Part shown: positions 1 to 16,559 of the stretch, piece by piece
How the letters are laid out: the number at the start of each line of letters is the position of its first letter
How positions within the stretch are numbered: position 1 is the first letter of the stretch
Source of the DNA: a virus
Strand: one strand, 5' to 3'
DNA length: 17,062 nucleotides
UHGV virus genome: UHGV-0205375
Translations under genes and position numbers: made by a program
The notes under the pieces: model-generated
What the model was told of the DNA's origin: nothing
The model's database searches: none
What the model saw: only the letters and a program-made list of their open reading frames with translations

Positions 1-83
1 GTGACGCGGACATTATCCGGCGTAATGCCATTACGCATCCTGGCTTTGTGCCGGTGATCCCTCTGAAGGTGCCAGTGCAATGA
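1..83 (+). CDS. 3' end (27 codons) of an upstream tail-module gene, partial
   Basis: Open frame from the window edge to TGA at 81-83, which overlaps the next ATG (80-82) in an ATGA coupling arrangement. Too short to assign a family; by Mu-like gene order it could be the DNA-circulation protein. Confidence 0.3.
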   Translation, partial: DADIIRRNAITHPGFVPVIPLKVPVQ

Positions 84-1159
84 ACGACAATGTCACGCTA
101 CGGGTAAATGGCCGGGAGTGGAATGGCTGGACATCGGTGCGCATCGGTGCCGGTATTGAACGGCTGGCGCGGGATTTCAGTGTGGAGATCACCCGCCAGT
201 GGCCGGGAGATGAGGGTATTACCACGCTTCAGCCGCGCATTAAAAACGGTTCAAAAGTGGAAGTGCTGATTGGTGATGAGCTGGTGATTACCGGCTGGGT
301 GGAGGCGACTCCCGTTCGTTACGATGCCCGTTCGGTCAGCACCGGTATTGCCGGACGTAGTCTGACGGCTGACCTGATTGACTGTGCAGCCGAACCGACA
401 CAGTTTAACGGACGCTCGCTGGTGCAGATTGCGCAGGCGCTTGCTGCGCCTTTCGGCATTGAGGTGGTGAACAACGGTGCGCCGTCGGGTGTTATTCCTG
501 ATGTCCAGCCTGATCACGGTGAAACGGTGATTGAGGTAATCAACAAAATACTCGGTCAGCAGCAGGCACTGGCTTACGACGACCCGCACGGCAGGCTGGT
601 GATTGGCGGTATTGGCTCAACGCGGGCACATACTGCGCTGGTACTCGGGGAAAACATCCTTTCCTGCGATACGGAGAAGAGTATCCGGGAGCGGTTTTCT
701 GTTTACCAGGTGGCGGGGCAGCGTGCCGGAAACGACGATGATTTCGGTGAGGCCACCACCACCGCGCTGCGGGCCCGCACAGAGGACGCATTTATTGCCC
801 GTTACCGTCCGATGTATATCAGGCAGACAGGGCAGGCTACGGGGGCAGGCTGTATTGCCCGTGCGGACTTTGAAGCCCGACAACGGGCGGCGCGGACGGA
901 TGAAACCACCTATGTGGTGCAGGGCTGGCGACAGGGTAACGGTACGCTGTGGCAGCCCAACCAGCGGGTGATTGTCTTCGATCCGGTCTGTGGTTTCGAC
1001 AATACCGAACTGCTTGTCTCGGAAGTCACGTTTACTCAGGACCAGAACGGCACCCTGACGGAAATCCGTGTCGGCCCACCTGATGCTTATCTGCCTGAAC
1101 CCGAAGCCCCCGGCGCGCGGAAAAAGAAAAAAGCCAGAGTACAGGAGGACCCGTTCTGA
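80..1159 (+). CDS. Baseplate hub / tail protein, Mu gp44 (P)-like, phage GPD family
   Basis: 359-aa ORF with AGGAGG-type coupling to the next gene. First gene of a collinear Mu-like baseplate block (hub, V, gp46, J, gp48, fibre). Assignment rests on synteny and recalled similarity. Confidence 0.75.
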   Translation: MNDNVTLRVNGREWNGWTSVRIGAGIERLARDFSVEITRQWPGDEGITTLQPRIKNGSKVEVLIGDELVITGWVEATPVRYDARSVSTGIAGRSLTADLIDCAAEPTQFNGRSLVQIAQALAAPFGIEVVNNGAPSGVIPDVQPDHGETVIEVINKILGQQQALAYDDPHGRLVIGGIGSTRAHTALVLGENILSCDTEKSIRERFSVYQVAGQRAGNDDDFGEATTTALRARTEDAFIARYRPMYIRQTGQATGAGCIARADFEARQRAARTDETTYVVQGWRQGNGTLWQPNQRVIVFDPVCGFDNTELLVSEVTFTQDQNGTLTEIRVGPPDAYLPEPEAPGARKKKKARVQEDPF

Positions 1160-1707
1160 TGAAGGCGATTGAAGCCATGCAGCGACAACTCCTCGGCCTG
1201 ATTGGGCGGGCAGTGGTGAAAAGCATCAGTGCCACCACGAAATGTCAGACCGTGGATGTGTCCCTGATTGCCGGTGAACCCAAAGCCGGGATTGAACATC
1301 TTGAACCCTACGGTTTTACCGCAAGGGCAAACAGCGGTGCGGAAGCGGTGGTGTTGTTTCCGGATGGCGACCGTTCTCATGCGGTGGTTGTTACGGTGTC
1401 GGACCGGCGCTACCGCCTGAAAGGGCTGCAGACGGGTGAGGTGGCTGTCTATGACGATCAGGGGCAGTCCGTGACGCTGACCCGGGAGGGGATCGTGGTG
1501 GACGGTGCAGGTAAAACGATCACGTTTCGCAATGCGCCCAGAGCACGTTTTGAAATGGACCTGGAAGTGACCGGACAGGTGAAAGACCTGTGCGACTCCG
1601 GCGGTACCACCATGTCAGCGATGCGGCTTGCCTATAACGGGCATCGTCACAGAGAGAACGGTCAGGGCAGTAACACCGACAAACCGGATAAAGCGATGGA
1701 GGCATGA
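1159..1707 (+). CDS. Baseplate assembly protein V-like (Mu gp45-like spike)
   Basis: 182-aa ORF; its ATG at 1159 overlaps the upstream TGA (1157-1159), with AGGAGG at 1144-1149. Position and size fit a baseplate V/spike protein. Confidence 0.75.
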   Translation: MKAIEAMQRQLLGLIGRAVVKSISATTKCQTVDVSLIAGEPKAGIEHLEPYGFTARANSGAEAVVLFPDGDRSHAVVVTVSDRRYRLKGLQTGEVAVYDDQGQSVTLTREGIVVDGAGKTITFRNAPRARFEMDLEVTGQVKDLCDSGGTTMSAMRLAYNGHRHRENGQGSNTDKPDKAMEA

Positions 1708-2132
1708 TGGAACTGTGGCTGACGGTGAACGGTAAACGCACCTGCGCCAGTGCACCGCTGGATCCGCTGACCCGCGCCGTGGTGATTTCCCTGTTTACCT
1801 GGCGGCGGGCGGAGCCTGATGACAACGCCGACGTCCCGATGGGATGGTGGGGGGATACCTGGCCTGCGGTACAGAATGACCGTTACGGCTCCCGACTGTG
1901 GCTGCTTCAGCGCAGCAAACTGACCAATCAGCTGGTGCAGACGGTAAGGGGATATATCCGCGAATGCCTGCAATGGATGATTGATGACGGCGTGGTGTCC
2001 CGTATTGATCTGGATATCCGCCGCACCGGGATTAATGAGCTGGGTAACAGTATCACCCTCTGGCGTCGTGACGGACCGGTAATGATTTCTTTTGATGATC
2101 TGTGGAGTGCGATAACGCATGGCGGACAGTGA
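1704..2132 (+). CDS. GP46-family baseplate protein (Mu gp46 / P2 W-like)
   Basis: 142-aa ORF; ATGA overlap with the upstream stop at 1704-1707. Position is between the V and J genes. Confidence 0.7.
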   Translation: MMELWLTVNGKRTCASAPLDPLTRAVVISLFTWRRAEPDDNADVPMGWWGDTWPAVQNDRYGSRLWLLQRSKLTNQLVQTVRGYIRECLQWMIDDGVVSRIDLDIRRTGINELGNSITLWRRDGPVMISFDDLWSAITHGGQ

Positions 2133-3177
2133 ATTTCAGCGCCCGACGCTGGCAGAAAATATCAGTATGCTCCGTAACGATTTATTCGCCAGGCTGGACG
2201 TCAGCGACACGCTCCGGCGCATGGATGAAGACGTGCGGGCAAAGGTGTATGCGGCGGCGCTGCATACGGTTTACGGTTACATCGATTATCTGGCAATGAA
2301 CATGCTGCCTGACCTGTGCGATGAGTCCTGGCTGGCGCGACATGCTGCGATGAAACAGTGTCCGCGCAAGGGGGCCACGGCTGCCAGCGGGTATATGCGC
2401 TGGGAAGGTGTCAGCGATGGCCTGAAGGTGACCGCCGGGAGTGTTATTCAGCGCGATGACCTGGTTCAGTACACGGCAACTGCCGATGCAACCAGCTCCG
2501 GTGGTGTCCTGCGCGTGCCGATCGCCTGCTCAAATGCAGGCGCGGTCGGTAACGCTGACGACGGTACGGCATTAATCCTGGTCACGCCGGTGAATGGTCT
2601 GCCGTCTTCCGGTGTGGCTGACACCCTGACAGGCGGATTTGATACTGAAGAGCTGGAAACGTGGCGCGCCCGCGTCATTGAGCGGTATTACTGGACGCCG
2701 CAGGGCGGGGCTGACGGGGACTATGTCGTCTGGGCTAAAGAAGTGCCCGGCATTACCCGCGCATGGACATACCGTCACTGGATGGGAACGGGAACTGTCG
2801 GTGTGATGATTGCCAGCAGTGACCTGATTAATCCCATTCCGGAAGAATCAACGGAAACGGCGGCAAGACAACATATCGAACCACTGGCCCCGGTGGCAGG
2901 CTCTGATTTGTATGTGTTCAGGCCGGTGGCACATACGGTGGATTTTCATATCCGCGTGACGCCGGACACACCGGAAATACGGGCTGCCATCACCGCGGAG
3001 TTGCGTTCGTTCCTGCTGCGTGATGGTTATCCGCAGGGAGAACTGAAGGTATCGCGTATCAGTGAGGCGATTTCCGGTGCGAACGGGGAATACAGCCATC
3101 AGTTGCTTGCACCGGCAGACAATATCTCCATTGCGAAAAACGAACTGGCGGTACTGGGGACGATTTCATGGACGTGA
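2119..3177 (+). CDS. Baseplate J-like protein (Mu gp47-like)
   Basis: 352-aa ORF overlapping its neighbours by a few codons. Size and position are typical of baseplate J. Confidence 0.8.
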
Positions 3178-3752
3178 CAAACGATGATTACATCCGTCTG
3201 TTGTCGGCACTGTTGCCCCCCGGTCCGGCGTGGTCAGCCGGCGATCCGGCGATTGCCGGTGCGGCACCGTCATTAACCCGCGTTCATCAGCGTGCGGATG
3301 CCCTGATGCGGGAGCTTGATCCGCGCACCACCACCGAGCTGATAAATCGCTGGGAGCGTCTGTGTGGCCTGCCGGATGAATGTATTCCCGCAGGGACACA
3401 GACCCTTCGCCAGCGTCAGCAACGGCTGGATGCGAAGGTTAACCTGACGGGTGGCATCAACGAGGATTTTTATCTTGCACAGCTTGCTGCCCTGGGCAGA
3501 CCAGACGCCACCATCACGCGATACGACAAAAGCACGTTCACCTGCTCATCGGCCTGTACTGACGCGGTGAATGCGCCGGAATGGCGGTATTACTGGCAGG
3601 TCAACATGCCAGCCGCCACCAACACCACCTGGATGACATGTGGCGATCCCTGTGATTCCGCGCTGCGCTTCTGGGGGGACACCGTTGTCGAGTGTGTTCT
3701 TAACAAACTCTGCCCGTCGCATACCTATGTGATTTTTAAATATCCGGAGTAA
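3168..3752 (+). CDS. Tail protein, DUF2313 family (Mu gp48 / YmfQ-like)
   Basis: 194-aa ORF immediately upstream of the tail fibre gene, overlapping the J gene stop. Confidence 0.7.
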
Positions 3753-3755
3753 TCC

Positions 3756-4421
3756 ATGCATCGTATAGACACGAAAACCGCGCAGAAGGATAAGTTCGGC
3801 GCGGGTAAGAACGGTTTTACCCGTGGTAACCCCCAGACCGGCACGCCTGCCACCGATCTGGATGATGACTACTTTGACATGTTGCAGGAGGAGCTTTGCA
3901 GCGTTGTGGAGGCATCCGGTGCCAGCCTGGAGAAGGGGCGGCATGACCAGCTGCTTACCGCGCTTCGTGCGCTGCTGTTAAGCCGCAAGAATCCGTTTGG
4001 TGATATCAAATCGGATGGCACGGTGAAAACGGCTCTCGAAAACCTTGGTTTGGGAGAAGCGGCAAAACTTGGCGCTGCTGTAGGGGTAACGGGTAATACC
4101 GGGAGAATATTGATCCCGGCTTTAATTGGTGGGGTTGAACAAAATATCATTTTCCAGTGGGTCTCTGGATTTCTTTCCGATTCGACTGGAGTAGCAACCG
4201 TGACATTACCTATGGCATTTCCTAACGCTCTGTTTCATGCCACTGCGATTGACTCAGGTGCTTCTGCTAGCTCGTGGAATGGATCGGCCGGCACAACGTG
4301 GGGCTTCGATATTGGTGGCTCTACCAGAACGACAGTCAAAGTTCGTGTTTTAAGAACAACTAATGGGACTTCATGGGCGGGTGCTTCAGCTGCCGGTTGT
4401 TTATTCGCAATAGGTTATTAA
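3756..4421 (+). CDS. Tail fibre protein; constant N-terminal part (Sc) fused to the currently expressed variable C-terminal part (Sv)
   Basis: 221-aa ORF with GGAG 7 nt upstream. N-terminus [40 protein letters not shown] is the conserved e14/Mu-type fibre N-terminus. The inversion crossover site lies inside this gene at 4033-4058. Confidence 0.8.
4033..4058. repeat. Left recombination site of the invertible segment (hix/gix-like, 26 bp, core TT at 4045-4046)
   Basis: CTCTCGAAAACC TT GGTTTGGGAGAA; its reverse complement TTCTCCCAAACC AA GGTTTTCGAGAG resembles the hix/gix sites as recalled. A 24-bp perfect inverted repeat (4045-4068) pairs with 5625-5648. Confidence 0.65.
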
Positions 4422-4422
4422 C

Positions 4423-4839
4423 ATGAAAACAAGATACTTTTATGACGCCGTTGATAACGGATTTTATATTGAACCTGAAAGCAGGTTTATTCCTGAATCA
4501 GCTATTGAAATCAGTGTTAACCTCTACAACCAATTTGCTGGTATTGCCTGGCCTGAAGGTAAAATGCTTGGTGCAGATAGCACTGGACTGCCCGCATGGG
4601 TCGATGCGCCGCCTCCAACGCATGAAGAGCAAATAGCGGCGGCAGAACAATATCGCCAGCAACGGCTACAGCAGATTGACGAAGTAACCGCCGACTGGCG
4701 GGTTGAATTAATGCTCGGCGATATAAGTGACGAGGATAAAGCGAAATTGTCTGAGTGGATGGCGCATAAAAAAGCGGTGAAAGCCGTCGATACGTCAACG
4801 GCCCCTAATGTCATCTGGCCTGAACAGCCGGAGGCGTAG
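4423..4839 (+). CDS. Tail fibre assembly protein (Tfa family)
   Basis: 138-aa ORF directly after the fibre gene. The motif LPAWVDAPPPTHEEQIAAAE is shared with the opposite-strand paralogue (LPAWADIPPPTHEELIEITE). Confidence 0.8.
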   Translation: MKTRYFYDAVDNGFYIEPESRFIPESAIEISVNLYNQFAGIAWPEGKMLGADSTGLPAWVDAPPPTHEEQIAAAEQYRQQRLQQIDEVTADWRVELMLGDISDEDKAKLSEWMAHKKAVKAVDTSTAPNVIWPEQPEA

Positions 4840-5254
4840 GCCATTCAATATCTGGCGCACCGGAAGTATCAACCAGTTCCAGTGCGTCCAGATAATCCAG
4901 CCACAAATTATATTGCGCCAGTTCGTCACCTTTCAGACGACCAATAGCGGCTTTACCGGGCCATTGTTTACTGTTCATGTATTCGTTGGCCTGGTTAATT
5001 AGTAACTGTCTTTCTGATTCAGTAATTTCAATAAGCTCTTCATGCGTGGGTGGAGGAATATCAGCCCACGCAGGCAGCGCATCATCTCCGGCAATACGGA
5101 CTTTTCCTTGTGGCGGTTCAGCCATAAACTCACTGACAATATTTTGATTCACTTCTTTCACATCTGATAAATCCCATCCCTCTGATTTATATTTATCAAT
5201 CATATCCACAGGGAAAAAAGCATTATGTCTGGCACTATAAACATATTTGTTCAT
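4811..5254 (-). CDS. Alternative tail fibre assembly protein (Tfa'), in the inverted orientation
   Basis: Start moved to the internal ATG at 5252-5254 (MNKYVYSARH...), preceded by an AGGGTG SD-like sequence; 147 aa. Carries the Tfa motif and overlaps the 3' end of tfa by 29 bp, as in e14 and Mu G segments. Confidence 0.75.
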   Translation of the reverse strand: MNKYVYSARHNAFFPVDMIDKYKSEGWDLSDVKEVNQNIVSEFMAEPPQGKVRIAGDDALPAWADIPPPTHEELIEITESERQLLINQANEYMNSKQWPGKAAIGRLKGDELAQYNLWLDYLDALELVDTSGAPDIEWPTPPAVQAR

Positions 5255-5274
5255 ATAAATCACCCTGAATAAAA

Positions 5275-5643
5275 TTACTCGCCAACAGCCCACCAACAGT
5301 AATTCATGGTAACAGTTGGACTTGTCGAGGTTGTTCTAAAGGCAGAATAAAACCCTGTTAACCCTGTCTCTTCAGTTGTCATCATAAAACCACGACCACT
5401 CCCGGCAGTTGAACCACCATCACCAGAATGTGAAAGCAAGGCAATATCAGCTTTTTTAGGGAAAGGTATATTAAATTCTACCCGTAGTGTCTGACTCGCA
5501 AGCGTAGGAGACACACGCCCACGACCATATTGCAGGATTTTCCCGTTGGGTAATTTCATCCATCCATCACCACTGGCAAAAGAGGCCATGTCCGGTATCT
5601 GATTTTCCCCTGTCCCCACATCCCGTTTTGCCGCTTCTCCCAA
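5275..5643 (-). CDS. Alternative tail fibre variable C-terminal cassette (Sv'), promoterless until inversion
   Basis: 122-aa open frame whose 5' end (GEAAK...) begins inside the right crossover site and mirrors the ...LGLGEAAK junction of the expressed fibre gene. Inversion would fuse it to the constant part of 3756-4421. Confidence 0.65.
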   Translation of the reverse strand: MGEAAKRDVGTGENQIPDMASFASGDGWMKLPNGKILQYGRGRVSPTLASQTLRVEFNIPFPKKADIALLSHSGDGGSTAGSGRGFMMTTEETGLTGFYSAFRTTSTSPTVTMNYCWWAVGE

Positions 5644-5660
5644 ACCAACCTTTCAAATAT
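5635..5660. repeat. Right recombination site of the invertible segment (core AA at 5647-5648)
   Basis: TTCTCCCAAACC AA CCTTTCAAATAT. The inner half-site plus core is identical to the reverse complement of the left site; it lies 60 bp upstream of the invertase start. Confidence 0.65.
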
Positions 5661-5719
5661 TTTTCTGAATCAGGTGATATTTCGCCTCTTCTCCTGTTTT
5701 TACAACAGGAGAAGCACTC

Positions 5720-6283
5720 ATGATTTACGGGTATGTTCGTGTATCAACAAATCATCAGGATACAGAGTTGCAACGTCTTGCACTTGAGTCAGCTGGCTGT
5801 GAGCGAATTTATGAAGAATATGCCAGTGGCAGAACAGCTAATCGCCCTGTGTTAAAGGAATTAATTACGGTGATGAAAAGTGGAGATGAGTTGATTGTCT
5901 GGAAGTTAGATCGGATAGGGAGAAATGTGCTGCATGCGCTATTGATGTTTCAAAATCTGCACGAAAAAGGTGTTAATTTTCGGAGTATTACAGATGGCGT
6001 AGACCTGAAAACAGCAAGTGGTCGCTATAATTTCCGTAATATTCTTTCTGCTGCGCAGTATGAATCTGATTTGAATAGCGAGCGAACTTTAGCTGGTTTG
6101 GCTATTGCCAGATCCAAAGGCCGGATTGGTGGGCGTAGACCGAAGTTTAGCGACGAGCAGTGGCAACAGATGGGAGCGCTCATAGCGGCAGGGAAATCAC
6201 GGCGTTATGTTGCACGTATCTATAACGTTGGGCTATCAACCCTATATAAACGATTTCCTGTTACTGGCATTCAAACGAAATAA
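5720..6283 (+). CDS. pin: Serine DNA invertase, Pin/Gin/Hin family
   Basis: 187 aa with AGGAG 8 nt upstream. N-terminal YGYVRVSTNHQ (catalytic Ser), WKLDRIGRN, GRIGGRRPKF and a C-terminal HTH (VGLSTLYKRF) follow the Gin/Pin pattern, and the gene abuts the invertible segment. Confidence 0.9.
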   Translation: MIYGYVRVSTNHQDTELQRLALESAGCERIYEEYASGRTANRPVLKELITVMKSGDELIVWKLDRIGRNVLHALLMFQNLHEKGVNFRSITDGVDLKTASGRYNFRNILSAAQYESDLNSERTLAGLAIARSKGRIGGRRPKFSDEQWQQMGALIAAGKSRRYVARIYNVGLSTLYKRFPVTGIQTK

Positions 6284-6587
6284 TTTAAAAGCAATTTAAA
6301 GAGTTATTTGTCTAATGTTGGAAGCCGCAGCCACGTCGTATGCAAGAACGTGCTGCGGCTGGCTGGCGAACTTTCGATAGTGCGAGTATTGAATGATTTC
6401 CAACTGTTATCGATTTTGCGTATTTTTTGCATGAGAGGATTTTTACCTCCTCCCGCCGATCCTCCATGGCTTTACGCCTGTGTCTCTGGTCTGCTCTGTG
6501 CCAGAAGCGGACATAGCAGGTGCCAGATGCATTTGTTATTCTTCATTGAATTGAGCAGTATCCTTAACAGGAACTCTGAATACATAA

Positions 6588-7226
6588 ATGAAGATGAAAA
6601 ACATGTCTGAAGTGTTGACCCAAGAAAAGCTTATTTTTGTTGCCCAGAGACTAAAGGCCCTCGCGCAGTCAGGCCTGACCTATTCAAAAGACGTCTTTGA
6701 CAAGGAACGCTATGAAGCCTTGCGTGAAATTGCCGCTGGACTGCTGAGTTCGCAGTTTGATATTAGCCGCAATGATTTGTTTCATGTATCGGAAACGGGT
6801 TACGCGACGCCCAAAACAGATGTGCGTGCGTTTATCCTGCGTAATAATCGTATTCTGATGGTGAAAGAGGCTGCAGATGGATTATGGAGTCTTCCTGGCG
6901 GATGGGCAGATGTTGGAGATACACCTTCTGAAGCTGTGCGTCGAGAGGTCGAAGAAGAAACCGGATTAAAAGTCAGAGTGACTAAACTATTGGGAGTTTG
7001 GGATCGTAATCTTCACGGCCATCCGCCTTTACCCTGGCATGTTTACAAGCTGATTTTTCTCTGTGAAGAAGTAGGTGGCAGCCTGTCAATCAGCCATGAG
7101 TCACTCGATGCTGATTTTTTTGATGTCAACGACCTGCCTGAATTGTCGCTTTCAAGAATTGTGCCTGAGCAGATTGCTGTCAGCCTGAGAGTAGCGAAAG
7201 GTGATGAAAAAACATGGTTTGATTAA
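6588..7226 (+). CDS. NUDIX hydrolase with an N-terminal helical domain
   Basis: 212-aa ORF with a Nudix box GGWADVGDTPSEAVRREVEEETGL (G-x5-E-x7-REVxEExGL). The start is ambiguous among ATGs at 6588, 6594 and 6603; substrate unknown. Confidence 0.75.
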   Translation: MKMKNMSEVLTQEKLIFVAQRLKALAQSGLTYSKDVFDKERYEALREIAAGLLSSQFDISRNDLFHVSETGYATPKTDVRAFILRNNRILMVKEAADGLWSLPGGWADVGDTPSEAVRREVEEETGLKVRVTKLLGVWDRNLHGHPPLPWHVYKLIFLCEEVGGSLSISHESLDADFFDVNDLPELSLSRIVPEQIAVSLRVAKGDEKTWFD

Positions 7227-7255
7227 CTTTCTTCTGCAACCATTAAGGAATGGCA

Positions 7256-7894
7256 ATGATATTCAACGCTAAGGGTTTTTTATTCGATATGGACGGTACG
7301 CTGGTTGATTCAACAGCCGTAGTGGAAAGCGTCTGGAGAGATTTTTGTGCAGAATACGGTCTTGATTCTCAGGCTGTGATTGCTTACGCACACGGGCGGC
7401 AAACGATTGATACACTAACGCATTTTATTGGTGCAGGTGAGAAAACCAATAAAATCGCGGCCTCACTCGAAGAGGTTGAAATCAACACGACAGAAGGCGT
7501 TACTGAAGTAAAAGGGGCCGCTGCACTCTTATCAAAACTGCCACCGGATAGCTGGGCACTTGTCACTTCTGCAGGCAGAATGCTTGCCGAAAACAGGATG
7601 AAAGCGGCTAATCTCCCCTTACCCAGAGTAATGGTGTGTGCAGAAGATGTAATGACGGGAAAACCAAGTCCCGAGGGTTACATCAAAGCAGCTTTGGCTT
7701 TGGGCCTTGAGCCTGGTGAATGCGTGGTATTTGAGGATGCATCTGCGGGTATAAAAGCAGGGCTGGCAAGTGGAGCTTCGGTAATAGCTGTTCAGCCTGA
7801 CGCTCTGGGAGCATCTGAAGCCCATGCCGTCAGCGAACTGTCTGACATTATGGTCAAGATTTCCGGAGAACGTTTCAATATCATCTGTGGTTAA
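7256..7894 (+). CDS. HAD-IA family phosphatase (beta-phosphoglucomutase-like sugar-phosphatase fold)
   Basis: HAD motif I FDMDGTLVDS at the N-terminus and an acidic motif (VVFEDASAG) near the C-terminus. Start placed at the second ATG (7256) because AAGGA at 7244-7248 is then 7 nt upstream; the ORF track starts at 7250. It lies 23-29 bp after the NUDIX gene, so probably co-transcribed. Confidence 0.8.
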   Translation: MIFNAKGFLFDMDGTLVDSTAVVESVWRDFCAEYGLDSQAVIAYAHGRQTIDTLTHFIGAGEKTNKIAASLEEVEINTTEGVTEVKGAAALLSKLPPDSWALVTSAGRMLAENRMKAANLPLPRVMVCAEDVMTGKPSPEGYIKAALALGLEPGECVVFEDASAGIKAGLASGASVIAVQPDALGASEAHAVSELSDIMVKISGERFNIICG

Positions 7895-8226
7895 TCACGT
7901 TACACAATACGCATCAATGGACGCTGAGTAGTTCGCGAGTTTTAAACTTCCAACGTCCGCTTTTCGCTCATAACAGACATAAACTTCAGTTATGGCATAA
8001 AGGTATGCATGCTGGGTGGGGAAAGTATGAAGGAAAAGAAGACTGCTGCGCCGTTTGTCGTCACGTTTATCTTCATTGGCTATGCAAGTCGTAATACAAG
8101 GTGGGACAAAACTGAGACACATAAGGCCTCGCAATGGCTTGCAAGGCTTTACATGTTTTGATGTGGTGGGACGTGTGAGCGCAGTGTTGATGGGGTAATG
8201 CTTTGAATTAGAAGCGGATTCTTATA

Positions 8227-8273
8227 ATTCGTAATGCGAAGGTCGTAGGTTCGACTCCTATTATCGGCACCAT
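8227..8273 (+). tRNA. Partial tRNA-Thr(CGU) gene: 3' 47 nt only (anticodon loop through CCA); attachment-site core, not a functional tRNA
   Basis: ATTCGTAATGCGAAGGTCGTAGGTTCGACTCCTATTATCGGCACCA contains the anticodon CGT, T-arm GGTTCGACTCC and acceptor 3' end with CCA, matching the 3' part of enterobacterial thrW as recalled. The upstream 80 bp has no D-arm or 5' acceptor half. It sits 13 bp from the 3' end of the integrase gene. Confidence 0.7.
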
Positions 8274-8286
8274 TTAAATCAATAAG

Positions 8287-9450
8287 TTACACATCATTAG
8301 TACCTTCCTTATTTTTTGACTGGGACAAATTTGGGACCGATGGGTTCAGGATCGAGTCTATTTGCCGTGCGTGTTCGGTAAGGTGATTAGGTGCAAGGTG
8401 AGCATATCGACGAACCATTTCGATAGACTCCCAGCCTCCCATTTCCTGTAACACTGACAACGGGACTCCGGCTTGAACCAGCCAACTTGCCCAGGTGTGT
8501 CTCAAGTCGTGAAATCTGAAATCATCAATACCAGCCCGTCTCAGCGCCGCTTTCCAGGCTGTGTTTGCGTCATACCGCATCTTCCTGACTGTTGGCGCTT
8601 TCGTTCCGTCTGGTTTGGTACAGCTTTCCTTGTACACAAATACCCAACGGTGATGATTCCCGATTTGTTTTTTCAATACGCGACATGCAGTATCATTCAG
8701 CGCAACGCCAATTGCGCGGTTTGATTTACTCTCTTCCGGGTTTATCCATGCCACCCGGCGCTGCATATCTATTTGTTGCCATTCAAGGTTGATGATGTTC
8801 GAGCGTCTTAGGCCTGTTGCCAGTGCAAATTCAACAACAGACTTTAATGGCTCCGGACATTCATCAATCAGCCTTTGTGCTTCATGGGGCTCCAGCCAGC
8901 GGATCCGTTTATTCTTTGGTTGGGGCACTTTAATAATTGGTGCCTTATCCAGCATTTTCCATTCACGCTCTGCGGCTCTTAGTAGGGCCTTTATAAATGA
9001 AAGATGCGTAGCCTTCGTTGCAACGGACGCTGGTTTTGGCGTGTATTCTGGAACAGGTTTCCCTTTTTTTCTGCATGCTTCTGCCCTGAGTTTCCAGTTT
9101 TCCTCATGACGCCGGTTCGTCATTTTCTGCATTGCTGAATAAATTTTTGATTCAGTAATGTCTCTTAGTTGCATTCCTGCGAAATGTTGAAGCCAGAATC
9201 CGATCCGGCTTTTGTCATCGTCCAGTGATTTTTTATGTGCTTTCTCTTCAAGCCACCTGACACACGCTTCCTCGAACGTTATATCAGGTATTTCACCAAG
9301 TTTGCTGACCCGCCATGCTTCAGCCTTTAGCTTGTCATGGAGTTCTGTCGCCTGCCTTTTGTCCTTTGTTCCAAGAGACTGTTTAAATCTTTTACCGTTC
9401 GGCAATGTGAAACTGGCGTACCATATTTCACCTCTGCGGAAGAGTGACAT
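8287..9450 (-). CDS. int: Tyrosine integrase, lambdoid/P22-like
   Basis: 387 aa with C-terminal catalytic region [16 protein letters not shown]...MVRRYAHL (H-x-x-R and Tyr). The 3' end abuts the tRNA-Thr fragment; P22-type integrases are known to use thrW. Confidence 0.9.
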
Positions 9451-9677
9451 TTTCTTTCCTCTGTTATGCCATCACCCGCGCTCACCTGGACAGTATGCAG
9501 CGGAGACTGAAGAGCCGCAATGCAGGCTTGTCGTGTTGTGAGGTAAGGAGATTTATTCTTAGTGGGATCTTTGCGTGTTGCCTGAAGACGCCCTGTGCGT
9601 ATCCAGTTAATGGCAGTCGGTCTGGATATCTTGAGAAAATGACAGGCCTCATCGAGTGTGAGGCTGTATGGCTCCAT
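9327..9677 (-). CDS. xis: Excisionase (Xis), P22-like
   Basis: Start taken at the internal Met ([29 protein letters not shown]...), giving 116 aa with an HTH-like N-terminus. Overlaps the 5' end of int and is coupled by a 1-nt overlap to the upstream gene. Confidence 0.6.
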
Positions 9678-9982
9678 TATTTCACCTCTTGCTGTGACAT
9701 TGTTGAAAAATGGATACCAGCTCGTTGCTGCCAGACGATCCAACCGAGAGTCATATCCCATGCCATGTATTCGTTATCGCCGTTTTTTGCTCTCCGACGA
9801 TCTACTAAGTCACCGAAACGCTTTTCCATGAATAATTCATAAGCTTCGCGTTCATCTGGTTCTACTTCCAGAGATAGGAGTGCGATTTCATAAGCACGGC
9901 GCTCAATATCGTCTCGCACGTCAAGGCTGCTGATACGCTCTTTAATTTCTTTAATCAGTTCTTTGTCGGTAAAAGTGGTCAT
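9677..9982 (-). CDS. Hypothetical early protein, YfdT-like by size and synteny (101 aa)
   Basis: Acidic 101-aa ORF with stop/start overlaps to both neighbours. Last gene of a five-gene run whose sizes (120/274/178/120/101 aa) match the CPS-53 yfdP-yfdT block as recalled. Confidence 0.5.
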   Translation of the reverse strand: MTTFTDKELIKEIKERISSLDVRDDIERRAYEIALLSLEVEPDEREAYELFMEKRFGDLVDRRRAKNGDNEYMAWDMTLGWIVWQQRAGIHFSTMSQQEVK

Positions 9983-10344
9983 TATGCTCCAGCCTCCGGT
10001 GCTTTTGGCATTACTGCCCAGTGAGTGATATTGACGTTTTCAAGGTCCCCGACCTGAAATGTCCACTGCCATTCTCCGGTTTCTTTTTGTCCCCAGGTGT
10101 ACCAGAGAGAACGCCAGCCAATTAGCCAGCCTTCTCCGTTAGCATCGAATAACAAAACACTTTCATTTGCTGGTGGCAGTTCAGTTGACACTGGTATTAC
10201 TTTGTTTTCCTGTGCTGCACATTTAGCTTCAAGCGCATCGAATTTACGCACTAGGTATTCAGCATCTGTTTCATTTACTTTCAGATCTCGCGGTACACAT
10301 CTCCCACGAAGAAACCCTTCCATTTCGAAAACATTCATGCGCAT
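9982..10344 (-). CDS. Hypothetical early protein, YfdS-like by size and synteny (120 aa)
   Basis: 120-aa ORF overlapping the upstream HD-domain gene by 10 nt. Confidence 0.5.
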   Translation of the reverse strand: MRMNVFEMEGFLRGRCVPRDLKVNETDAEYLVRKFDALEAKCAAQENKVIPVSTELPPANESVLLFDANGEGWLIGWRSLWYTWGQKETGEWQWTFQVGDLENVNITHWAVMPKAPEAGA

Positions 10345-10871
10345 TTGCGTAACTCCGATAACTCGTTAAAGCGTTCCATAAACATCCCGTAGGCATGGCC
10401 CGGAGCCAGTGGAATCACGTTGAACATCTCTGTTGCCGGGATACCTTCCAGTACAGGCCAGAAAGAGCCATCATCAAGCCCGAGATCGCGGCGTTCGGTT
10501 GCCAGCATGATGAGATCGGCATATTTCACGGGCGTACTCATAACTGGGGGTAACCCGTATTTCTCACGGATTACGGCGTCTATTTTTTCTTCCATTTGTT
10601 TATAGTCAGGAAGAAGGCGTTTCAGTGGTGCGGGAATGTCCTGGCAATACGCTTCTGTTGCATCATGCATTAACGCTTCAAAAGCAAATTCCTGCGGCAC
10701 CAGCTGGCTGCAAAGAACCGCATGTTGGGCGACGCTGTAGAAGTGCGAAAGATGACCGGCAAAGCGACAGATATTTGAAAGGGAAACCGCGATATCGTTA
10801 ATATCGATGTCGTCTTTATTTATCCTGTCATAATAAAAATGCTTCCCGGAAAAAGTTTTAATAAATGACAT
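10335..10871 (-). CDS. yfdR: HD-domain phosphohydrolase (YfdR-like 5'-deoxynucleotidase family)
   Basis: Start taken at the internal Met (MSFIKTFSGKHFYYD...), giving 178 aa. HD-domain residues are visible (VAQHAV... ALMHDATEAY). Confidence 0.7.
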   Translation of the reverse strand: MSFIKTFSGKHFYYDRINKDDIDINDIAVSLSNICRFAGHLSHFYSVAQHAVLCSQLVPQEFAFEALMHDATEAYCQDIPAPLKRLLPDYKQMEEKIDAVIREKYGLPPVMSTPVKYADLIMLATERRDLGLDDGSFWPVLEGIPATEMFNVIPLAPGHAYGMFMERFNELSELRKCA

Positions 10872-10998
10872 TTTGTTCTCCACGTATATGCGCTGCACCG
10901 CGCTGAATTCTGGTAAAAAGAATCCCTCACCATCCGGCGATTATTGAGTAAATTACGTTTCCATAAATGCCCCCGCAGGGGCATTTGCAGTAATGAAA

Positions 10999-11823
10999 TC
11001 AGGCGGTGAAAGTACCAATAAAGGTTTCTACTTTGCTGTCCTTGAATTTCTCAACAAGCAGATCACGAAATTCGTTAGCCATTTCTTCCTGCACCGCCTC
11101 CAGCTGAATAATGCGTAGAACCAGTACAGGACGATCGCCAGTGATAATACTGAGGCGTAATTTAAACGGACGTTCTTTCAGACCTTCAAACGGAACGCAT
11201 TTAAATTCAAATGCCACTGGCATAATGTCTTTGGTCTTCGCTTCGACAGACTCCATCAGGGAGCGTTTGCCGCTGAAGTCATTATCTTCAAAATCAGCGG
11301 TCTGGTTTGCTTCAATCGTGATTTTACGGACAGCCGCAGCCGCTTTTGTTGCCTGAATAGCGTCACCATTAGCATCAAAGCCCACAAGATAGTCGGCCCA
11401 GTCTTCAATCCATTCTGCCAGTGACTTCTGGGAGTTACGCTCGCCGTTAACAGACAACAGAGCAGAGAACGGTGCTGTCTTTTTCAGTTTGAGTGTGGCG
11501 GTGTTATCTGCGTGGCCTGGTTCATCAATAGTACCTAGGTTAAGCACACTGACGGCACGCATATTATCAGCATCGATAAAGCAGCGGGTGCCTTCATCTG
11601 CAAGATCTTTAGAATAACGGGTAAAGTCATCGATGCTGGCAGTGGAAAGCGCACCACGGAAACGGAAGCGATTTAAATTAAATTTTTCCAGATCATGAAT
11701 GCGGAAATTCTCAGGCAATGCCACAGCATCGGCACCAATCTTACTGATAATTTCATTAACACCCTGAGCAGAAATAAGGGCATGGATTTGATTAATTGCG
11801 GTTGCGTCTAAGTTCTGAGACAT
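10999..11823 (-). CDS. yfdQ: DUF2303-type phage protein (YfdQ-like)
   Basis: 274-aa ORF directly upstream of the HD-domain gene; the name is assigned from recalled size (274 aa) and position upstream of yfdR, not from a motif. Confidence 0.6.
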
Positions 11824-11888
11824 AATAAGTCCTCACTATATAAAGATATTCAGTGATGAGATAAATAATCAGTTAATTAAAAACGATA

Positions 11889-12251
11889 TTAACGACCTGC
11901 TGCGCGGAGTTTTCCGTCAGGTTCACCGGCAAGAGTCAGTAACTGTCCCTGGTCTTCCTGCAGAATAGTCAGGCGACCACCGCGATTGACATACATCGGC
12001 GTTTCGGTGGTGTCTTCTTCGGAAATTTTCCCGCGGTTAGTCGGGCGAACATATGAGAGTTTGTGTTTGATTTTCACTCGGTTCTCATCAAACGGTTCGA
12101 TTTCCAGGTTGAGCGAGACCTTACCTTTGGTTTTCGTGTTCATCACACCGGAAGCGACTTCACTGAGAACTGCGCCGAATTTGGTTTCAAATACGCCGCC
12201 GTCCAGCTCCCCGATAAATGCCTGCACATCAGTACTGCGTTCGCTAGCCAT
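11889..12251 (-). CDS. Hypothetical early protein, YfdP-like by size and synteny (120 aa)
   Basis: Start at MASERSTDVQAF... (ATG at 12249-12251). The longer 226-aa track ORF extends through GC-rich structured non-coding sequence with an Arg-rich nonsense translation. Confidence 0.55.
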   Translation of the reverse strand: MASERSTDVQAFIGELDGGVFETKFGAVLSEVASGVMNTKTKGKVSLNLEIEPFDENRVKIKHKLSYVRPTNRGKISEEDTTETPMYVNRGGRLTILQEDQGQLLTLAGEPDGKLRAAGR

Positions 12252-12387
12252 TTTGCTGCTCCTCATCATATCGACCCTGCAAGGTCGGTTAGTTTCTCCA
12301 CAAAACAGAGAAGAACACCTGCGGTGACTGCCGCCCGGATGGATTGGGTTATGAGCCCGTCGTCCGGTGATGCTCTTCTCTGTTTTG

Positions 12388-12433
12388 TAAAAAGGACGGT
12401 ACCAGCCGGAAGCAAGGGTACAAGCTGGTACCG
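12388..12433 (-). terminator. Putative intrinsic terminator for leftward (minus-strand) transcription
   Basis: 10-bp perfect GC-rich inverted repeat CGGTACCAGC (12397-12406) / GCTGGTACCG (12424-12433) with a 17-nt loop. On the minus strand it is followed by TCCTTTTTAC. The large loop makes it weaker than a canonical terminator. Confidence 0.35.
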
Positions 12434-12719
12434 CCAAGACTACACACAGCATAAAGTTGTGGTGCCGGGTGCCTCCCGGTGCCTGGCGAAGGTTGCACAC
12501 CAGGCGGGTGGGTATCCACAGAAGGTCGACTGTCAGCCTCAACCTTAACCCGCGTGCGCTGAGCCGCATTCACCACAACGCTAAGGATTCTCTCTGGTTG
12601 AAAATACTTAGCTGTTATGTGCCTGCTTTTAGCCACATCAGGCGAGGTGGACCTAGTTATTCCCCAACAACAAGGATTCGGTTAATCTGGTTATCCCCAA
12701 CAACGCAAAAGGAAAAGAA

Positions 12720-13154
12720 ATGTCCGGTAATATCTATACGCTGTACAAATCCCACTGTGAAAATGTTGGAAAGTATCGGGGCATTGAAATCAGTGGGGTA
12801 GTGTCATCAGTCGAAATAAGCAAAGTTGAATCAAGGGCAACATTACTTACTCTTTTGGACCTTGTCTTACATGAGCACCGGAAGAAATTCGGCACTCCCT
12901 ATAATCAGTTGAATGGGAAAAAGGCTCTGGTTCACCTTATTCTGATGAAGCATCACTGGATGCCAAAACAGATTAATGAGATGAAATTTGATGAACTTCT
13001 TCTTTCAATTCAGGATGAACTCACACTTGATAAAATAAGCGTAACCGCCCAGAAATTTTTAGATTATCGAGACTGGAGATCACAAATTCATCACTTTGAT
13101 GATTTTGACGAAAATGAATGGGATCCTAATTTGTCTGCACAATATCTAAAGTAA
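12720..13154 (+). CDS. Hypothetical protein (144 aa), orphan gene oriented against the leftward early operon
   Basis: ATG at 12720 with AAGGA 6 nt upstream. Preceded by two direct repeats GTTAT(T)CCCCAACAAC (12656-12671, 12690-12704). The 3' end overlaps the convergent 68-aa gene by 29 bp. No recognisable family. Confidence 0.55.
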   Translation: MSGNIYTLYKSHCENVGKYRGIEISGVVSSVEISKVESRATLLTLLDLVLHEHRKKFGTPYNQLNGKKALVHLILMKHHWMPKQINEMKFDELLLSIQDELTLDKISVTAQKFLDYRDWRSQIHHFDDFDENEWDPNLSAQYLK

Positions 13155-13332
13155 CATCCTGTGATAAAACCGTGATTTCCTGATCCAGTTTTTTTAAGGA
13201 GTCTATTGTTTCCTGTCGATAAGACAGCACTTCACGAAGCTGGTTTATAGCTGCCAGCTTCTTTGTCATCCACTCATAAATTTCCTCATCTGTGTAGCCA
13301 GGCGCGACGATTTTGGGTTCTGTTTTGTGCAT
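13126..13332 (-). CDS. Hypothetical protein (68 aa), first gene downstream of the putative pL
   Basis: Start taken at the ATG at 13330-13332, preceded by GAGGAGA 7 nt upstream; the track's TTG start at 13347 lies inside that RBS. No Arg-rich N-terminus, so not obviously an N-type antiterminator. Confidence 0.5.
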   Translation of the reverse strand: MHKTEPKIVAPGYTDEEIYEWMTKKLAAINQLREVLSYRQETIDSLKKLDQEITVLSQDVTLDIVQTN

Positions 13333-13496
13333 TTCACATCTCCTCAAGTTATCAGTTACTTGTTGATGGGGACCAGATTGTTAAAGAGCTAAGCGTCCTG
13401 TAGGGCGCTTTTTTGTTGCTAACGAATCATCCTGGACTTCATATGCCCCAGGCGGCTACTTCGTGGGCGTCCTGCCTGTTCGTTGTCGGTAAAATG

Positions 13497-13538
13497 ATAT
13501 TGCTACTTAAAGTTGCAAAAATCAACTACAAAAAGTAG
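13497..13538 (-). promoter_or_regulatory. Putative OL/pL: two 13-bp operator sites (CTAC-N5-GTAG type) interleaved with -35 TTGATT and -10 CAATAT on the minus strand
   Basis: Minus-strand reading is CTACTTTTTGTAG - TTGATT - 17-bp spacer containing CAACTTTAAGTAG - CAATAT. Same architecture and 23-bp operator spacing as the OR/pR region at 15303-15344. Confidence 0.5.
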
Positions 13539-13844
13539 AAGTTAAGGGCATAAAAACGCATTTTGAAATTAATTCATTGAATTTACAGGTAAAATATTTT
13601 GGGGGCTATGATCAAAAAATTATATTGTGAAGTTAGCTGAGTTGTAGAACGTGATGGATTGTTTCATTGTGGCTGAGATCAGTATGTGATCTAGTTAATC
13701 ATCAAGTGGGGAGAAGTCAATCATGAGAGTATTGTTGAGTTTTTGGAGACTAAGTGTAAAACGGTAGGGAATTTACTACTCAATGGATTGTGTGATTTAG
13801 CCTCGATAGTAAGAAAACTAGGGCAGGTCATAGTCAAAAACTTA

Positions 13845-14129
13845 TCAAAACATAAATTTGGCGAGACCTAAAATCGCCAAGCCTGTTGCAACAGTCCATG
13901 CGATCTGTTTATTTACGGCTGATGAAATAGCGCTGTTGACTTCACTTAGGCTAGGTTTTTTTGACAACTTTTCATCTATATCTATTTGTTTTTGAAGGAT
14001 AACAGCGACATCGCGTCGGGTGTCGGAGAGAGCGTTTCGCAAATCACGAATGTCAGCTCTCATCTCTGCGAGATTTGTTTTTATATCCTCAACATTCGCT
14101 TCTAACTTAGCGACTCGGGCTTCAAGCAT
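13845..14129 (-). CDS. Small coiled-coil protein with C-terminal transmembrane anchor (XhlA-like architecture)
   Basis: Start taken at the ATG at 14127-14129, preceded by GGAGGTG 6 nt upstream; 94 aa. MLEARVAKLEANVEDIKTNLAEMRADIRDLRNALSDTRRDV is coiled-coil-like and the C-terminus IAWTVATGLAILGLAKFMF is hydrophobic. The track's longer ORF would overlap the upstream gene by 56 nt. Confidence 0.55.
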   Translation of the reverse strand: MLEARVAKLEANVEDIKTNLAEMRADIRDLRNALSDTRRDVAVILQKQIDIDEKLSKKPSLSEVNSAISSAVNKQIAWTVATGLAILGLAKFMF

Positions 14130-14196
14130 GTCATCACCTCCGCCATCTCCACCGTGTCTTCTAATTGTGGGAAGTTCACTATTAAATGGTACTACA

Positions 14197-14544
14197 TTAT
14201 TTTGCGGCGTCGGCATTTTTTTCATCTTCCGTTTTTGCTGGGAACTTTTCATTTACCCAGTTCAAAACTGAAAACGCATTTATATGAATTTCATTTCCAC
14301 AATTGTTGCATATTAGTGAAAAGTAATACTGGTTAGCAGTATCAGAATAAATGCTTTTTTCAGTAAAAACATTCACATAACTACCAAGTTTCATAGTACA
14401 TGGCATGCCCACATTCGCGCTGACTTGAGGCACAGTCAATCTGTCGTGTCCACATAGTGTACATTTTAGATATATATTCTTTTCTGAGAAATAAGAGACC
14501 AACATATCCATGTTAATCTTTTCGAATCCCTGCTCACTAGCCAT
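14197..14544 (-). CDS. Zinc-ribbon-type protein (115 aa), unknown function
   Basis: Two CxxC pairs (CTLCGH and CNNCGN) about 50 residues apart. Starts 15 bp downstream of the cI stop on the same strand, so probably co-transcribed with the repressor. Confidence 0.55.
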   Translation of the reverse strand: MASEQGFEKINMDMLVSYFSEKNIYLKCTLCGHDRLTVPQVSANVGMPCTMKLGSYVNVFTEKSIYSDTANQYYFSLICNNCGNEIHINAFSVLNWVNEKFPAKTEDEKNADAAK

Positions 14545-14559
14545 TATATGCCCTTAGAA

Positions 14560-15300: not shown

Positions 15301-15302
15301 TT

Positions 15303-15344
15303 CTATTTTAAGTAGTTGCAATTCGCTACTTTAAGTAGCATTAT
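15303..15344. promoter_or_regulatory. Putative OR with divergent promoters: operators CTATTTTAAGTAG (15303-15315) and CTACTTTAAGTAG (15326-15338); pR -35 TTGCAA (15316-15321) and -10 CATTAT (15339-15344)
   Basis: Two near-palindromic 13-bp sites spaced 23 bp centre to centre between divergent cI and cro. The pR spacer is 17 bp, and the cro AGGAG RBS follows at 15361-15365. Confidence 0.55.
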
Positions 15345-15371
15345 CCCCTCTGGATTTCAGAGGAGAAAGAT

Positions 15372-15635
15372 ATGTCATCTCAAAACTACACCGAGAAAGC
15401 AGTAAAGGCTGCGGGAAAGTCTTTATCTGAAGTAGCTCGTCGCTTTGGTTTTAAATCTACTCAATCTGTCGCTAATTGGGTAATTAACAATCAAGTCCCG
15501 TCGGAACGAGTTTTACAACTTTGTGAGCTGGGGAACTGGTCCGTAACCCCCCATGAGCTGCGTCCTGATATTTATCCAAATCCAAATGATGGATTACCAG
15601 AGTGCTATTCAAAAGTTAGCGGTTCAGTTGCGTAA
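15372..15635 (+). CDS. Cro-like HTH regulator (YdaS-like)
   Basis: 87 aa, divergent from cI, AGGAG 6 nt upstream. The segment STQSVANWVINNQVPSERVLQLCELGNWSVTPHELRPDIY resembles YdaS/Cro-type proteins as recalled. Confidence 0.7.
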   Translation: MSSQNYTEKAVKAAGKSLSEVARRFGFKSTQSVANWVINNQVPSERVLQLCELGNWSVTPHELRPDIYPNPNDGLPECYSKVSGSVA

Positions 15636-15663
15636 ACGTAACCACAGAAACGAGGAGTTAACC

Positions 15664-16550: not shown

Positions 16551-16559
16551 AGGTCGGTC

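Follow-up and report, generated by a model that had tools for sequence, protein, structure and literature searches.

Several slots in the genomes of phages and related elements hold cargo with a shown or accepted role in conflict or surface modification, including fun(Z), which blocks T5 (P2 annotation) and lies between the tail-fibre assembly gene G and the sheath gene FI of P2, gtrABC (gtrV-gtrB-gtrA), which lies between the tail fibres and attP of SfV, and mcrA, which follows pin at the end of e14. The fun locus is also the position at which Vassallo et al. described three new defence systems (PMC9519451). The DNA analysed here, a 17,062-nt stretch of viral sequence (UHGV virus genome UHGV-0205375; the whole stretch is termed the window), carries in the slot that holds gtrABC in SfV a 1,490-bp cassette with genes for a NUDIX hydrolase and a HAD-IA phosphatase (Table 1). 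Sequence comparison indicates that an enterobacterial chromosome was the source of this cassette, which is now spread among unrelated temperate phages of E. coli. Unlike fun(Z), gtrABC and mcrA, the NUDIX-HAD pair is assigned by sequence only, and unlike the gtr and mcrA units it is enclosed by a conserved boundary motif. The cassette is a phage moron with housekeeping-type enzymes, located in the lysogenic-conversion slot of an SfV-like phage, and it is proposed, with moderate confidence, to act as an accessory two-step module for the breakdown of nucleoside diphosphate-X compounds (NDP-X) without a dedicated immune role.

For the NUDIX hydrolase, the closest described enzymes are CDP-Chase (PDB 3Q1P, 3Q4I, 6NCH and 6NCI) and the UDP-X diphosphatase of S. 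pneumoniae (4HFQ), with which it has in common the two domains, an LPxLS motif and the type of NUDIX box. The described members are chromosomal, belong to Firmicutes and have a link to teichoic acid or peptidoglycan precursors, whereas the window NUDIX is carried by phages of a Gram-negative host. CDP-Chase subfamily enzymes form a homodimer that is asymmetric and has two different active sites and are reported to combine NDP-X pyrophosphatase and 3'-5' RNA exonuclease activities, while the window protein is known from its sequence and a monomer model; further, it has a HAD phosphatase partner, which the characterised CDP-Chase/UDP-X members are not reported to have. The HAD protein has the HAD-IA fold and the four catalytic motifs in common with E. 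coli YfbT/HxpA, the HAD-IA sugar/polyol phosphatases and yeast Gpp1. As a mobile unit, the cassette resembles integron gene cassettes and Xer-dependent pdif modules, with which the motif-bounded units share short length, mixed functions (defence, GNAT, glyoxalase, NUDIX and regulators), a position between short conserved repeats, singly or in tandem, and occurrence on several replicons. It differs from them in that the motif is not attC- or dif/cer-like on direct reading and that no dedicated recombinase accompanies the cassette; exchange may proceed via short-homology recombination or a recombinase yet to be recognised.

The limits of the cassette are constant. Whether the BLAST subject is an E. 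coli genome, a phage or an IMG/VR contig, the match has its limits at positions 6489 and 7978 in every case, with the same end points against four phage backbones and a non-phage contig (L173), including the P2-like phage P24C9 and 12 IMG/VR contigs. Exactly at these limits lies a 33-nt inverted repeat with 24 complementary positions out of 33 (P ~1e-8, the location having been set beforehand by the independent BLAST comparison). The core of the repeat is a motif that reads GTCCGCTT-TGTGCCAG-AAGCGGAC on the left and GTCCGCTT-TTCGCTCA-AAGCGGAC on the right, the two being mutually inverted. Beyond the window (6489-6512 and 7955-7978), motif sites are present in L175 (336/2433), L293 (3790), L301 (4751/6458), L302 (4751/6831) and many IMG/VR loci (L176-L291). 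About 31% of E. coli genomes possess the motif, at 1-5 copies per genome, a frequency that rules out an ordinary chromosomal repetitive extragenic palindromic (REP) element, and among ~80 chromosomal NUDIX loci it is found only beside the cassette. A role as a stable hairpin or terminator is unsupported, with unremarkable folding energies, no fold for the right copy of the window and no T-run after it, and direct reading revealed no likeness to the known recombination sites dif/cer, hix/gix or attC, nor was a target-site duplication seen. Arms of the same 8 nt (GTCCGCTT ... AAGCGGAC), joined by different loops, lie on either side of a 1.5-kb two-gene unit in high-GC phage contigs (L184 8200-9736 and six similar IMG/VR contigs), which could be due to chance or mean that the motif is more widely distributed.

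Among 5,426 complete E. coli genomes, the cassette is carried by 22 (0.4%), all at ≥99% identity, and copies at this level of identity occur in four phage settings, the P2-like, the Qin-like lambdoid, the end of a lambda-like prophage and the SfV-like. In the P2-like phages P24C9 and 10W the cassette lies between G and FI, which is the Z/fun slot, and phage 11W holds a decayed copy; none of the P2-like prophages in the E. coli genomes possesses it. Qin-like lambdoid prophages account for 18 of the 22 carriers and for 11 of the 12 IMG/VR contigs, with the cassette in the early-right operon, between a replication-region gene and Q, its neighbours being a DUF977 gene and hokD, and in a lambda-like prophage it occupies the thrW-side end. 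An earlier note on the window had tied the pair to the slot next to the invertase, an association that this distribution does not uphold, and the arrangement of the window, in the SfV-like slot, is seen in none of the 22 carriers. No record among the same genomes or among 50,697 phage records covers at least 80% of window positions 5700-8300, and the combination of SfV-like backbone, invertase and cassette is therefore not represented in those sets.

The phage copies stem from one recent capture, because the 12 copies in IMG/VR are identical (100%) and the viral contigs hold nothing between these and the next match at 37%. Outside the phages, the pair is found at 90% DNA identity over exactly positions 6489-7978 in L173, where its neighbours are metabolic genes (the nearest named relative of one flanking gene is from Rahnella aquatilis, 76%), at 85% identity in L169, where an extra GGACT gene lies within the motifs, and at protein identities of 80% (NUDIX) and 72% (HAD) in L007/L008, in an island with integrases. 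A conserved chromosomal pair with constant neighbours had been named beforehand as an observation that would speak against a phage-specific role; the pair does occur in non-phage contigs, but its neighbours differ each time. In Cedecea, Leclercia, Pseudescherichia, Kluyvera and Enterobacter, among others, orthologues of the NUDIX (62-72% identity) stand alone on the chromosome, and the closest relatives of the HAD outside the pair (59-69% identity) lie in unrelated chromosomal contexts. An old conserved operon is ruled out, as a HAD gene is near the chromosomal NUDIX homologue at only one of ~80 loci and its product is 27% identical. Across the pair-bearing loci, the ratio of nonsynonymous to synonymous substitution rates (dN/dS) is 0.09-0.16 for the NUDIX and 0.11-0.17 for the HAD, and the synonymous rates are similar for both, which argues that the two genes have been inherited together under purifying selection.

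These data bear on the explanation that the cassette is a near-neutral hitch-hiker, in which the boundary motifs ease swapping and a housekeeping activity is kept with no benefit to phage or lysogen, the enzymes perhaps not belonging to one pathway. Such a history is decidedly unlikely given the selection on both genes (dN/dS 0.1-0.17), the persistence of the pair through 20-28% protein divergence, the intact state of most phage copies and the presence of the cassette at ≥99% identity on at least four backbones of phages, whose genomes are size-limited and usually lose useless DNA. It would nevertheless be compatible with the small number of carriers (22 of 5,426), with the decayed or truncated copies (phage 11W, two genomes with a deletion in the HAD gene and one copy interrupted by IS3), with the absence from phage copies of the AGGAG ribosome-binding site of the chromosomal copies, with the lack of a HAD partner for most chromosomal NUDIX homologues and with the fact that other, plainly housekeeping-type cassettes travel in the same way.

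The assignment of both enzymes made in the earlier note is borne out by their Pfam domains and by intact catalytic motifs. The NUDIX protein combines Nudix_N (PF12535, E 7.6e-18, residues 14-61) with NUDIX (PF00293, E 7.9e-19, residues 77-184), the architecture of the CDP-Chase/UDP-X diphosphatase subfamily, and its NUDIX box (G-x5-D-x7-REVxEExGL) is complete when read directly in the translation. The homology and structure searches that had been suggested for the NUDIX class place it in this subfamily, with matches to 3Q1P (B. cereus CDP-Chase; E 7e-50, 45% identity over 186 residues), 3O8S (S. suis; 43% identity) and 4HFQ, and a Foldseek search with the predicted structure returned full-length matches only to CDP-Chase (6NCI and 3Q4I) and the UDP-X diphosphatase (4HFQ) at E ~1e-19, all other NUDIX structures being at E 1e-10 or weaker. 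In the predicted monomer, the NUDIX domain is confident and the N-terminal domain is of low confidence (predicted local distance difference test score 43-65), as would be expected if this domain folds only in the dimer. The subfamily has been described by the box pattern GXarXsm[E/D]UX2[S/T]X2EX3KEUXEEXGU and an LPxLS motif (PMC3655063); GWADVGDTPSEAVRREVEEETGL fits this box, with R where the published pattern has K, and residues 183-187 of the 212-aa form read LPELS. The known substrates of the subfamily are CDP-choline and UDP-MurNAc derivatives, and the family has been proposed to act on cell-wall precursors (PMC3655063), though for S. suis 3O8S no convincing substrate was found among 74 tested, with only weak activity, on dinucleotide polyphosphates. 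The sole PADLOC match of the NUDIX is to PDC-S07 (36.8 bits over the generic NUDIX core, comparable with MutT cross-hits), which reflects generic NUDIX-core similarity and is ruled out as a defence identity.

The HAD protein matches HAD_2 (E 2.2e-22) and Hydrolase (E 2.3e-16) in Pfam, and motifs I (DMDGT), II (TS), III (K) and IV (ED) are all intact by direct reading, in the stretches FDMDGTLVDS, VTSAG, GKPSPEGY and FEDASAG. Together with these four motifs, a match to the subfamily model TIGR01509 HAD-SF-IA-v3 (61.3 bits, cut-off 29.4) places the protein in HAD-IA. The best NCBIfam model is the sugar phosphatase PRK11587 (NF008610 equivalog; 190.8 bits, E 1.9e-56), and as the score is below the equivalog cut-off of 282 the protein is a relative of YfbT/HxpA and not its orthologue. 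The best PDB match is yeast glycerol-3-phosphatase (2QLT, 6e-23), and PADLOC gave no match for the HAD at E up to 1. The NUDIX and HAD proteins are already annotated in RefSeq and in phage records, with PHROG families, and literature searches found no paper describing or testing the pair.

On the basis of these family assignments, the NUDIX hydrolase would cleave the pyrophosphate bond of NDP-X to yield a nucleoside monophosphate and X-phosphate, and the HAD phosphatase would then remove the phosphate from X-phosphate to yield X and phosphate, making the breakdown irreversible. X would be a sugar, a polyol or an alcohol, and the best guess for the substrate is a compound of the CDP-glycerol, CDP-ribitol or CDP-choline type, an NDP-sugar or ADP-ribose. 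The sequence of a pyrophosphatase followed by a phosphatase, an idea of the earlier note, is chemically sensible and gains backing from the co-inheritance of the pair under purifying selection. In the infected or lysogenic cell, the module would perform accessory housecleaning or the draining of a precursor, as opposed to the dedicated destruction of an immune signal, and it would have arrived by a swap at the conserved 24-33-nt motifs by which other cargo of these slots is bounded as well.

That other cargo is diverse. The slot of the window, between the tail fibres/invertase and attP, is empty in strain 13C1065T, which has a related prophage with the same invertase, and in strain 5735 it holds a gene for a 314-aa protein, with homology to the window up to 6518 and again from 7952, that is, through both boundary motifs. 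The content of the slot varies among near-identical phages and the cassette is absent from most relatives, as is characteristic of a moron or hotspot, and the earlier description of a variable cargo slot beside the invertase, at the future prophage end, was correct in that relatives with the same invertase hold nothing or another gene. The same left and right motifs flank fun(Z) in P2, and in Qin-like prophages they flank either a 340-aa protein or a DUF4209 protein that matches the defence candidate PDC-S39 (2e-102). A scan of IMG/VR identified at least 54 motif-bounded units in at least 25 size classes, including the 1,466-nt spacing of the cassette, with some units in tandem. PADLOC matches amongst this cargo include PDC-M38A/B, Menshen NsnA/B, AbiLi, a ThsA-like SIR2, a CARF_ADA-type deaminase, PD-T4-2_A, LmuA and AriA, and the housekeeping-type cargo includes LysR + SDR, HxlR + NmrA, glyoxalase, GNAT and cytidylyltransferase genes.

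Tandem motif-bounded arrays are present in L003 (4229-8008), L185 (3690-6609), L286 (2245-4048) and L198 (1361-4433). In L003, a unit with only a NUDIX gene is directly followed by a LysR + SDR unit that is 93% identical end to end to a unit on a viral contig, and exchange between chromosome-like and phage DNA is therefore indicated. A further motif-bounded unit (L201 1793-5305), with genes for an adenosine deaminase, a SIR2-like protein and an NTP pyrophosphatase of the Ham1 type, resembles a candidate for nucleotide-based defence in a slot of the same kind. Whatever the role of the enzymes, one motif pair delimits exchangeable cargo both in phages (P2-like, lambdoid and SfV-like) and in chromosomal arrays. 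The boundary motif could be used to search for new phage accessory genes and could offer a clue to their movement between unrelated phages. This cassette system is the most interesting by-product of the analysis.

The location of the cassette is an argument for a role in prophage defence or superinfection exclusion, in which the pair would protect the lysogen by removing a non-essential host metabolite needed by incoming phages (for example, UDP-glucose for the glucosylation of T-even DNA or the nucleotide-activated precursor of a surface receptor), or by destroying a phage-specific nucleotide. Such a role would agree with the presence of the cassette in the defence-enriched Z/fun slot of P2, where fun blocks T5 (PMC9519451 for the locus), with mcrA and gtrABC at the same position in e14 and SfV, with the PDC-S39, PDC-M38, Menshen NsnA/B, AbiLi, ThsA-like SIR2, PD-T4-2, LmuA and AriA matches of other motif-bounded cargo, with the similar cassette that joins an adenosine deaminase, SIR2 and a Ham1 NTP pyrophosphatase, and with the proposed action of characterised NUDIX relatives on cell-wall precursors (PMC3655063). 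It is unlikely nonetheless, as the pair has no sensor or regulatory domain, PADLOC offers no match for the HAD and only the generic PDC-S07 match for the NUDIX, close orthologues are chromosomal genes of an ordinary kind, and the cassette is rare and sometimes decayed; moreover, co-orientation with lytic operons and the lack of a recognised promoter of its own fit expression in a lysogen poorly. If the cassette proves to be plain housekeeping cargo, it is a useful warning that a gene does not belong to defence or counter-defence simply because it lies in a hotspot rich in defence genes.

The layout of the cassette is relevant to when it would be expressed. A gap of 29 nt separates the NUDIX and HAD genes, which are on the same strand, and the same pair recurs at a spacing of 26-28 nt in three other loci; since, in addition, no terminator-like site is predicted between them, the co-transcription proposed earlier is plausible, the gap and the missing terminator being the observed part of that claim and the shared transcript the conjectured part. 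Neither a crude consensus scan of the + strand within the cassette nor inspection by eye revealed a sigma-70 consensus promoter, and the cassette contains one weak terminator-like stem (6513-6539). The NUDIX open reading frame (ORF) spans 6588-7226 (+), with the RefSeq start annotated at 6588 (212 aa), and its likely true start, based on homologues and the ribosome-binding site, is at 6603 (MSEVLTQEK). By the same evidence the HAD ORF (7250-7894, +), which has an alternative ATG at 7250, likely starts at 7256, with AAGGA 6 nt upstream. The ribosome-binding site before the NUDIX start is AGGAG/AGGGG in the chromosomal copies (L169, L173 and L007) and TGAAG in the phage copies (6575-6602), which also have two in-frame ATGs upstream of that start. 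From these differences, translation of the NUDIX may be weaker or differently started in phages than in the chromosomal copies.

Expression during lytic growth would be the setting for counter-defence, in which the NUDIX would cleave an ADP-ribose-derived or other nucleotide immune signal, or the toxic product of NAD-degrading defences, and the HAD would finish the breakdown, blunting Thoeris-type or related signalling. The cassette shares the orientation of the upstream phage operon in each of the four phage settings, lytic read-through is plausible as no sigma-70 consensus promoter was found inside it, and in 18 of the 22 genomes it lies in a lambdoid early-right operon. NUDIX enzymes can also cleave ADP-ribose-type pyrophosphates, and the 43%-identical 3O8S was deposited as an ADP-ribose pyrophosphatase, although in the 74-substrate screen it was only weakly active, on dinucleotide polyphosphates, and the characterised relatives use CDP-choline and UDP-MurNAc. 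A conserved proline ~15-16 residues past the NUDIX box, a rule ascribed to Dunn et al. (1999), reportedly marks ADP-ribose pyrophosphatases; in the window protein this proline is absent, as L and H occupy +15 and +16 after the end of the box (G126-L127) and the first prolines past it are P146 and P147 (+19 and +20).

The pair does recall Acb1, Apyc1 and the NARP pathways, which are likewise small phage-borne enzymes acting on nucleotide-derived molecules and include a NUDIX-like module in NatV of NARP2, but at the level of Pfam it has no sequence or domain relation to these or to other known signal-degrading or -sequestering phage proteins, it lacks NAD-salvage partner genes and its nearest relatives are housekeeping-type hydrolases; NARP3 is unrelated. 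With the NUDIX captured recently from chromosomes in which it is solitary, and with no NUDIX-HAD counter-defence module found in the literature searches, this explanation is very improbable. The anti-defence signal degradation raised in the earlier note accordingly found no specific backing, the NUDIX being nearest to CDP-choline/UDP-MurNAc hydrolases and the HAD to sugar/polyol phosphatases, with close chromosomal relatives.

Several observations weigh against the proposal of an accessory NDP-X breakdown module without a dedicated immune role. Known substrates differ within the NUDIX subfamily (CDP-choline and UDP-MurNAc), with one member lacking a good substrate among 74, and the HAD scores below the YfbT equivalog cut-off. 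The ~80 chromosomal NUDIX homologues are without an adjacent HAD, and the pairing is therefore not ancient. Because the slots of the cassette are enriched in defence genes (fun(Z) in P2 and the three new systems at the fun locus, PMC9519451) and many other units between the same motifs match PADLOC models, the location argues for a role in conflict and not in housekeeping. The constant co-orientation with the upstream phage operon and the missing sigma-70 consensus would fit lytic expression, and because decayed copies exist, selection is perhaps weak and the cassette perhaps a near-neutral passenger.

A bolder combination of these points is a sensor-less two-enzyme conflict module that would erase a metabolite linked to a nucleotide (an immune signal of the ADP-ribose type, or else a nucleotide-sugar or -polyol required for the glycosylation of phage DNA or of a receptor) and would spread between unrelated temperate phages (P2-like, lambdoid and SfV-like) and enterobacterial chromosomes by a so far undescribed exchange system that is based on the boundary motif and reminiscent of integron cassettes. 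This reading is doubtful; were a conflict role true, the module would be a very simple one, consisting of two constitutive hydrolases without a sensor and with a nucleotide-linked metabolite as the target.

Table 1. Coordinates of the cassette and neighbouring features in the window.
Feature	Position	Strand	Basis or remark
Mobile cassette, 1,490 bp	6489-7978	+	Same BLAST end points in phages and non-phage contig
Left terminal inverted repeat	6489-6521	.	Core 6489-6512, GTCTGCTCTGTGCCAGAAGCGGAC
Right terminal inverted repeat	7946-7978	.	Core 7955-7978, GTCCGCTTTTCGCTCATAACAGAC
NUDIX hydrolase, CDP-Chase/UDP-X diphosphatase subfamily, 207 aa	6603-7226	+	Pfam, PDB, Foldseek
HAD-IA phosphatase, YfbT/HxpA-like sugar or polyol phosphatase, 212 aa	7256-7894	+	HAD_2, Hydrolase
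Pin/Gin-type serine DNA invertase	5720-6283	+	Resolvase E 3.3e-36 + HTH_7
Non-coding spacer, invertase to cassette	6284-6488	.	No family match for ORF
attP core, 46 nt	8227-8272	+	Within 8102-8300; same core at prophage-chromosome junction in L292
P22/SfV-type tyrosine integrase, same phage	8287-9450	-	Phage_integrase E 3.2e-48

The window is a single segment of an SfV-like temperate phage genome, with the attachment site in the attP configuration. With the baseplate and tail genes of the Shigella phages SfV, SfI, SfII and SfIV, positions 1-4067 share 97-98% identity, and the same level is seen between positions 8102-8300 and the attP/int region annotated in SfI, SfII, SfIV and SfV. After the integrase follow an excisionase, early-left genes, a CI-type repressor, Cro and CII, a layout that matches SfV. 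Since the order of tail genes, cargo, attP, int, xis, early genes, CI, Cro and CII is the vegetative order of SfV, the attachment site is an intact attP and not a prophage end. Two tandem prophages at thrW were dropped as an explanation, the 46-nt core having phage DNA on both sides in this vegetative order. The core itself is presumably the 3' end of a tRNA-Thr gene (thrW), and no complete tRNA was found. The earlier note had compared the window with e14, and the e14 order that it gave (pinE, mcrA, element end) proved correct when checked, but e14 is not the appropriate reference for a phage with tail genes 98% identical to those of SfV, and the supposed element end is the intact attP. The note's argument from position gains strength from the analysis once it is moved to an SfV-like phage and to a cassette with several slots.

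The low GC content noted for the region was confirmed against the baseplate module (46.5% for the cassette, 58.2% for the baseplate genes and 58% over positions 1-3750), but it does not set the cassette off from the rest of the phage and is ruled out as a sign of foreign cargo, as the whole phage outside the baseplate module is at 44-48%. The invertase, the integrase and the whole early region are at 44-47%, and the outlier is the baseplate module, with 44-48% throughout positions 3756-17062 (fibres, invertase, cargo, integrase and early genes).

The tail-fibre region after position 4067 encodes fibre C-termini and assembly genes on both strands. An invertible segment (4040-5653) adjoins the invertase, with alternative fibre C-termini and assembly genes on opposite strands, and is bracketed by 29-nt inverted crossover sites (4040-4068 and 5625-5653) that are 93% complementary. 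The invertase is the upstream neighbour of the cargo slot, and the identical protein (WP_000639149.1) is present in related prophages with empty or different downstream cargo. In the early-left operon, the ORF at 10335-10898 (-) weakly resembles the YfbR-like HD-domain 5'-deoxynucleotidase family (25.0 bits against a cut-off of 25.9) and, from this similarity, may encode a second nucleotide-metabolism enzyme of the same phage.

The interval from the invertase to the annotated NUDIX start (6284-6587) is non-coding, and a 100-aa ORF with a TTG start (6308-6610) has no Pfam family match. The spacer is common to L292 up to 6428 and to L293 up to 6518. Within it, 90 nt (6333-6422) form a ykgJ-like fragment with 88% identity to the E. 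coli ykgJ region (in L002), and the matching stretch in strain NMBU-W12E19 is called a partial 'capsid protein' in RefSeq, an apparent mis-call.

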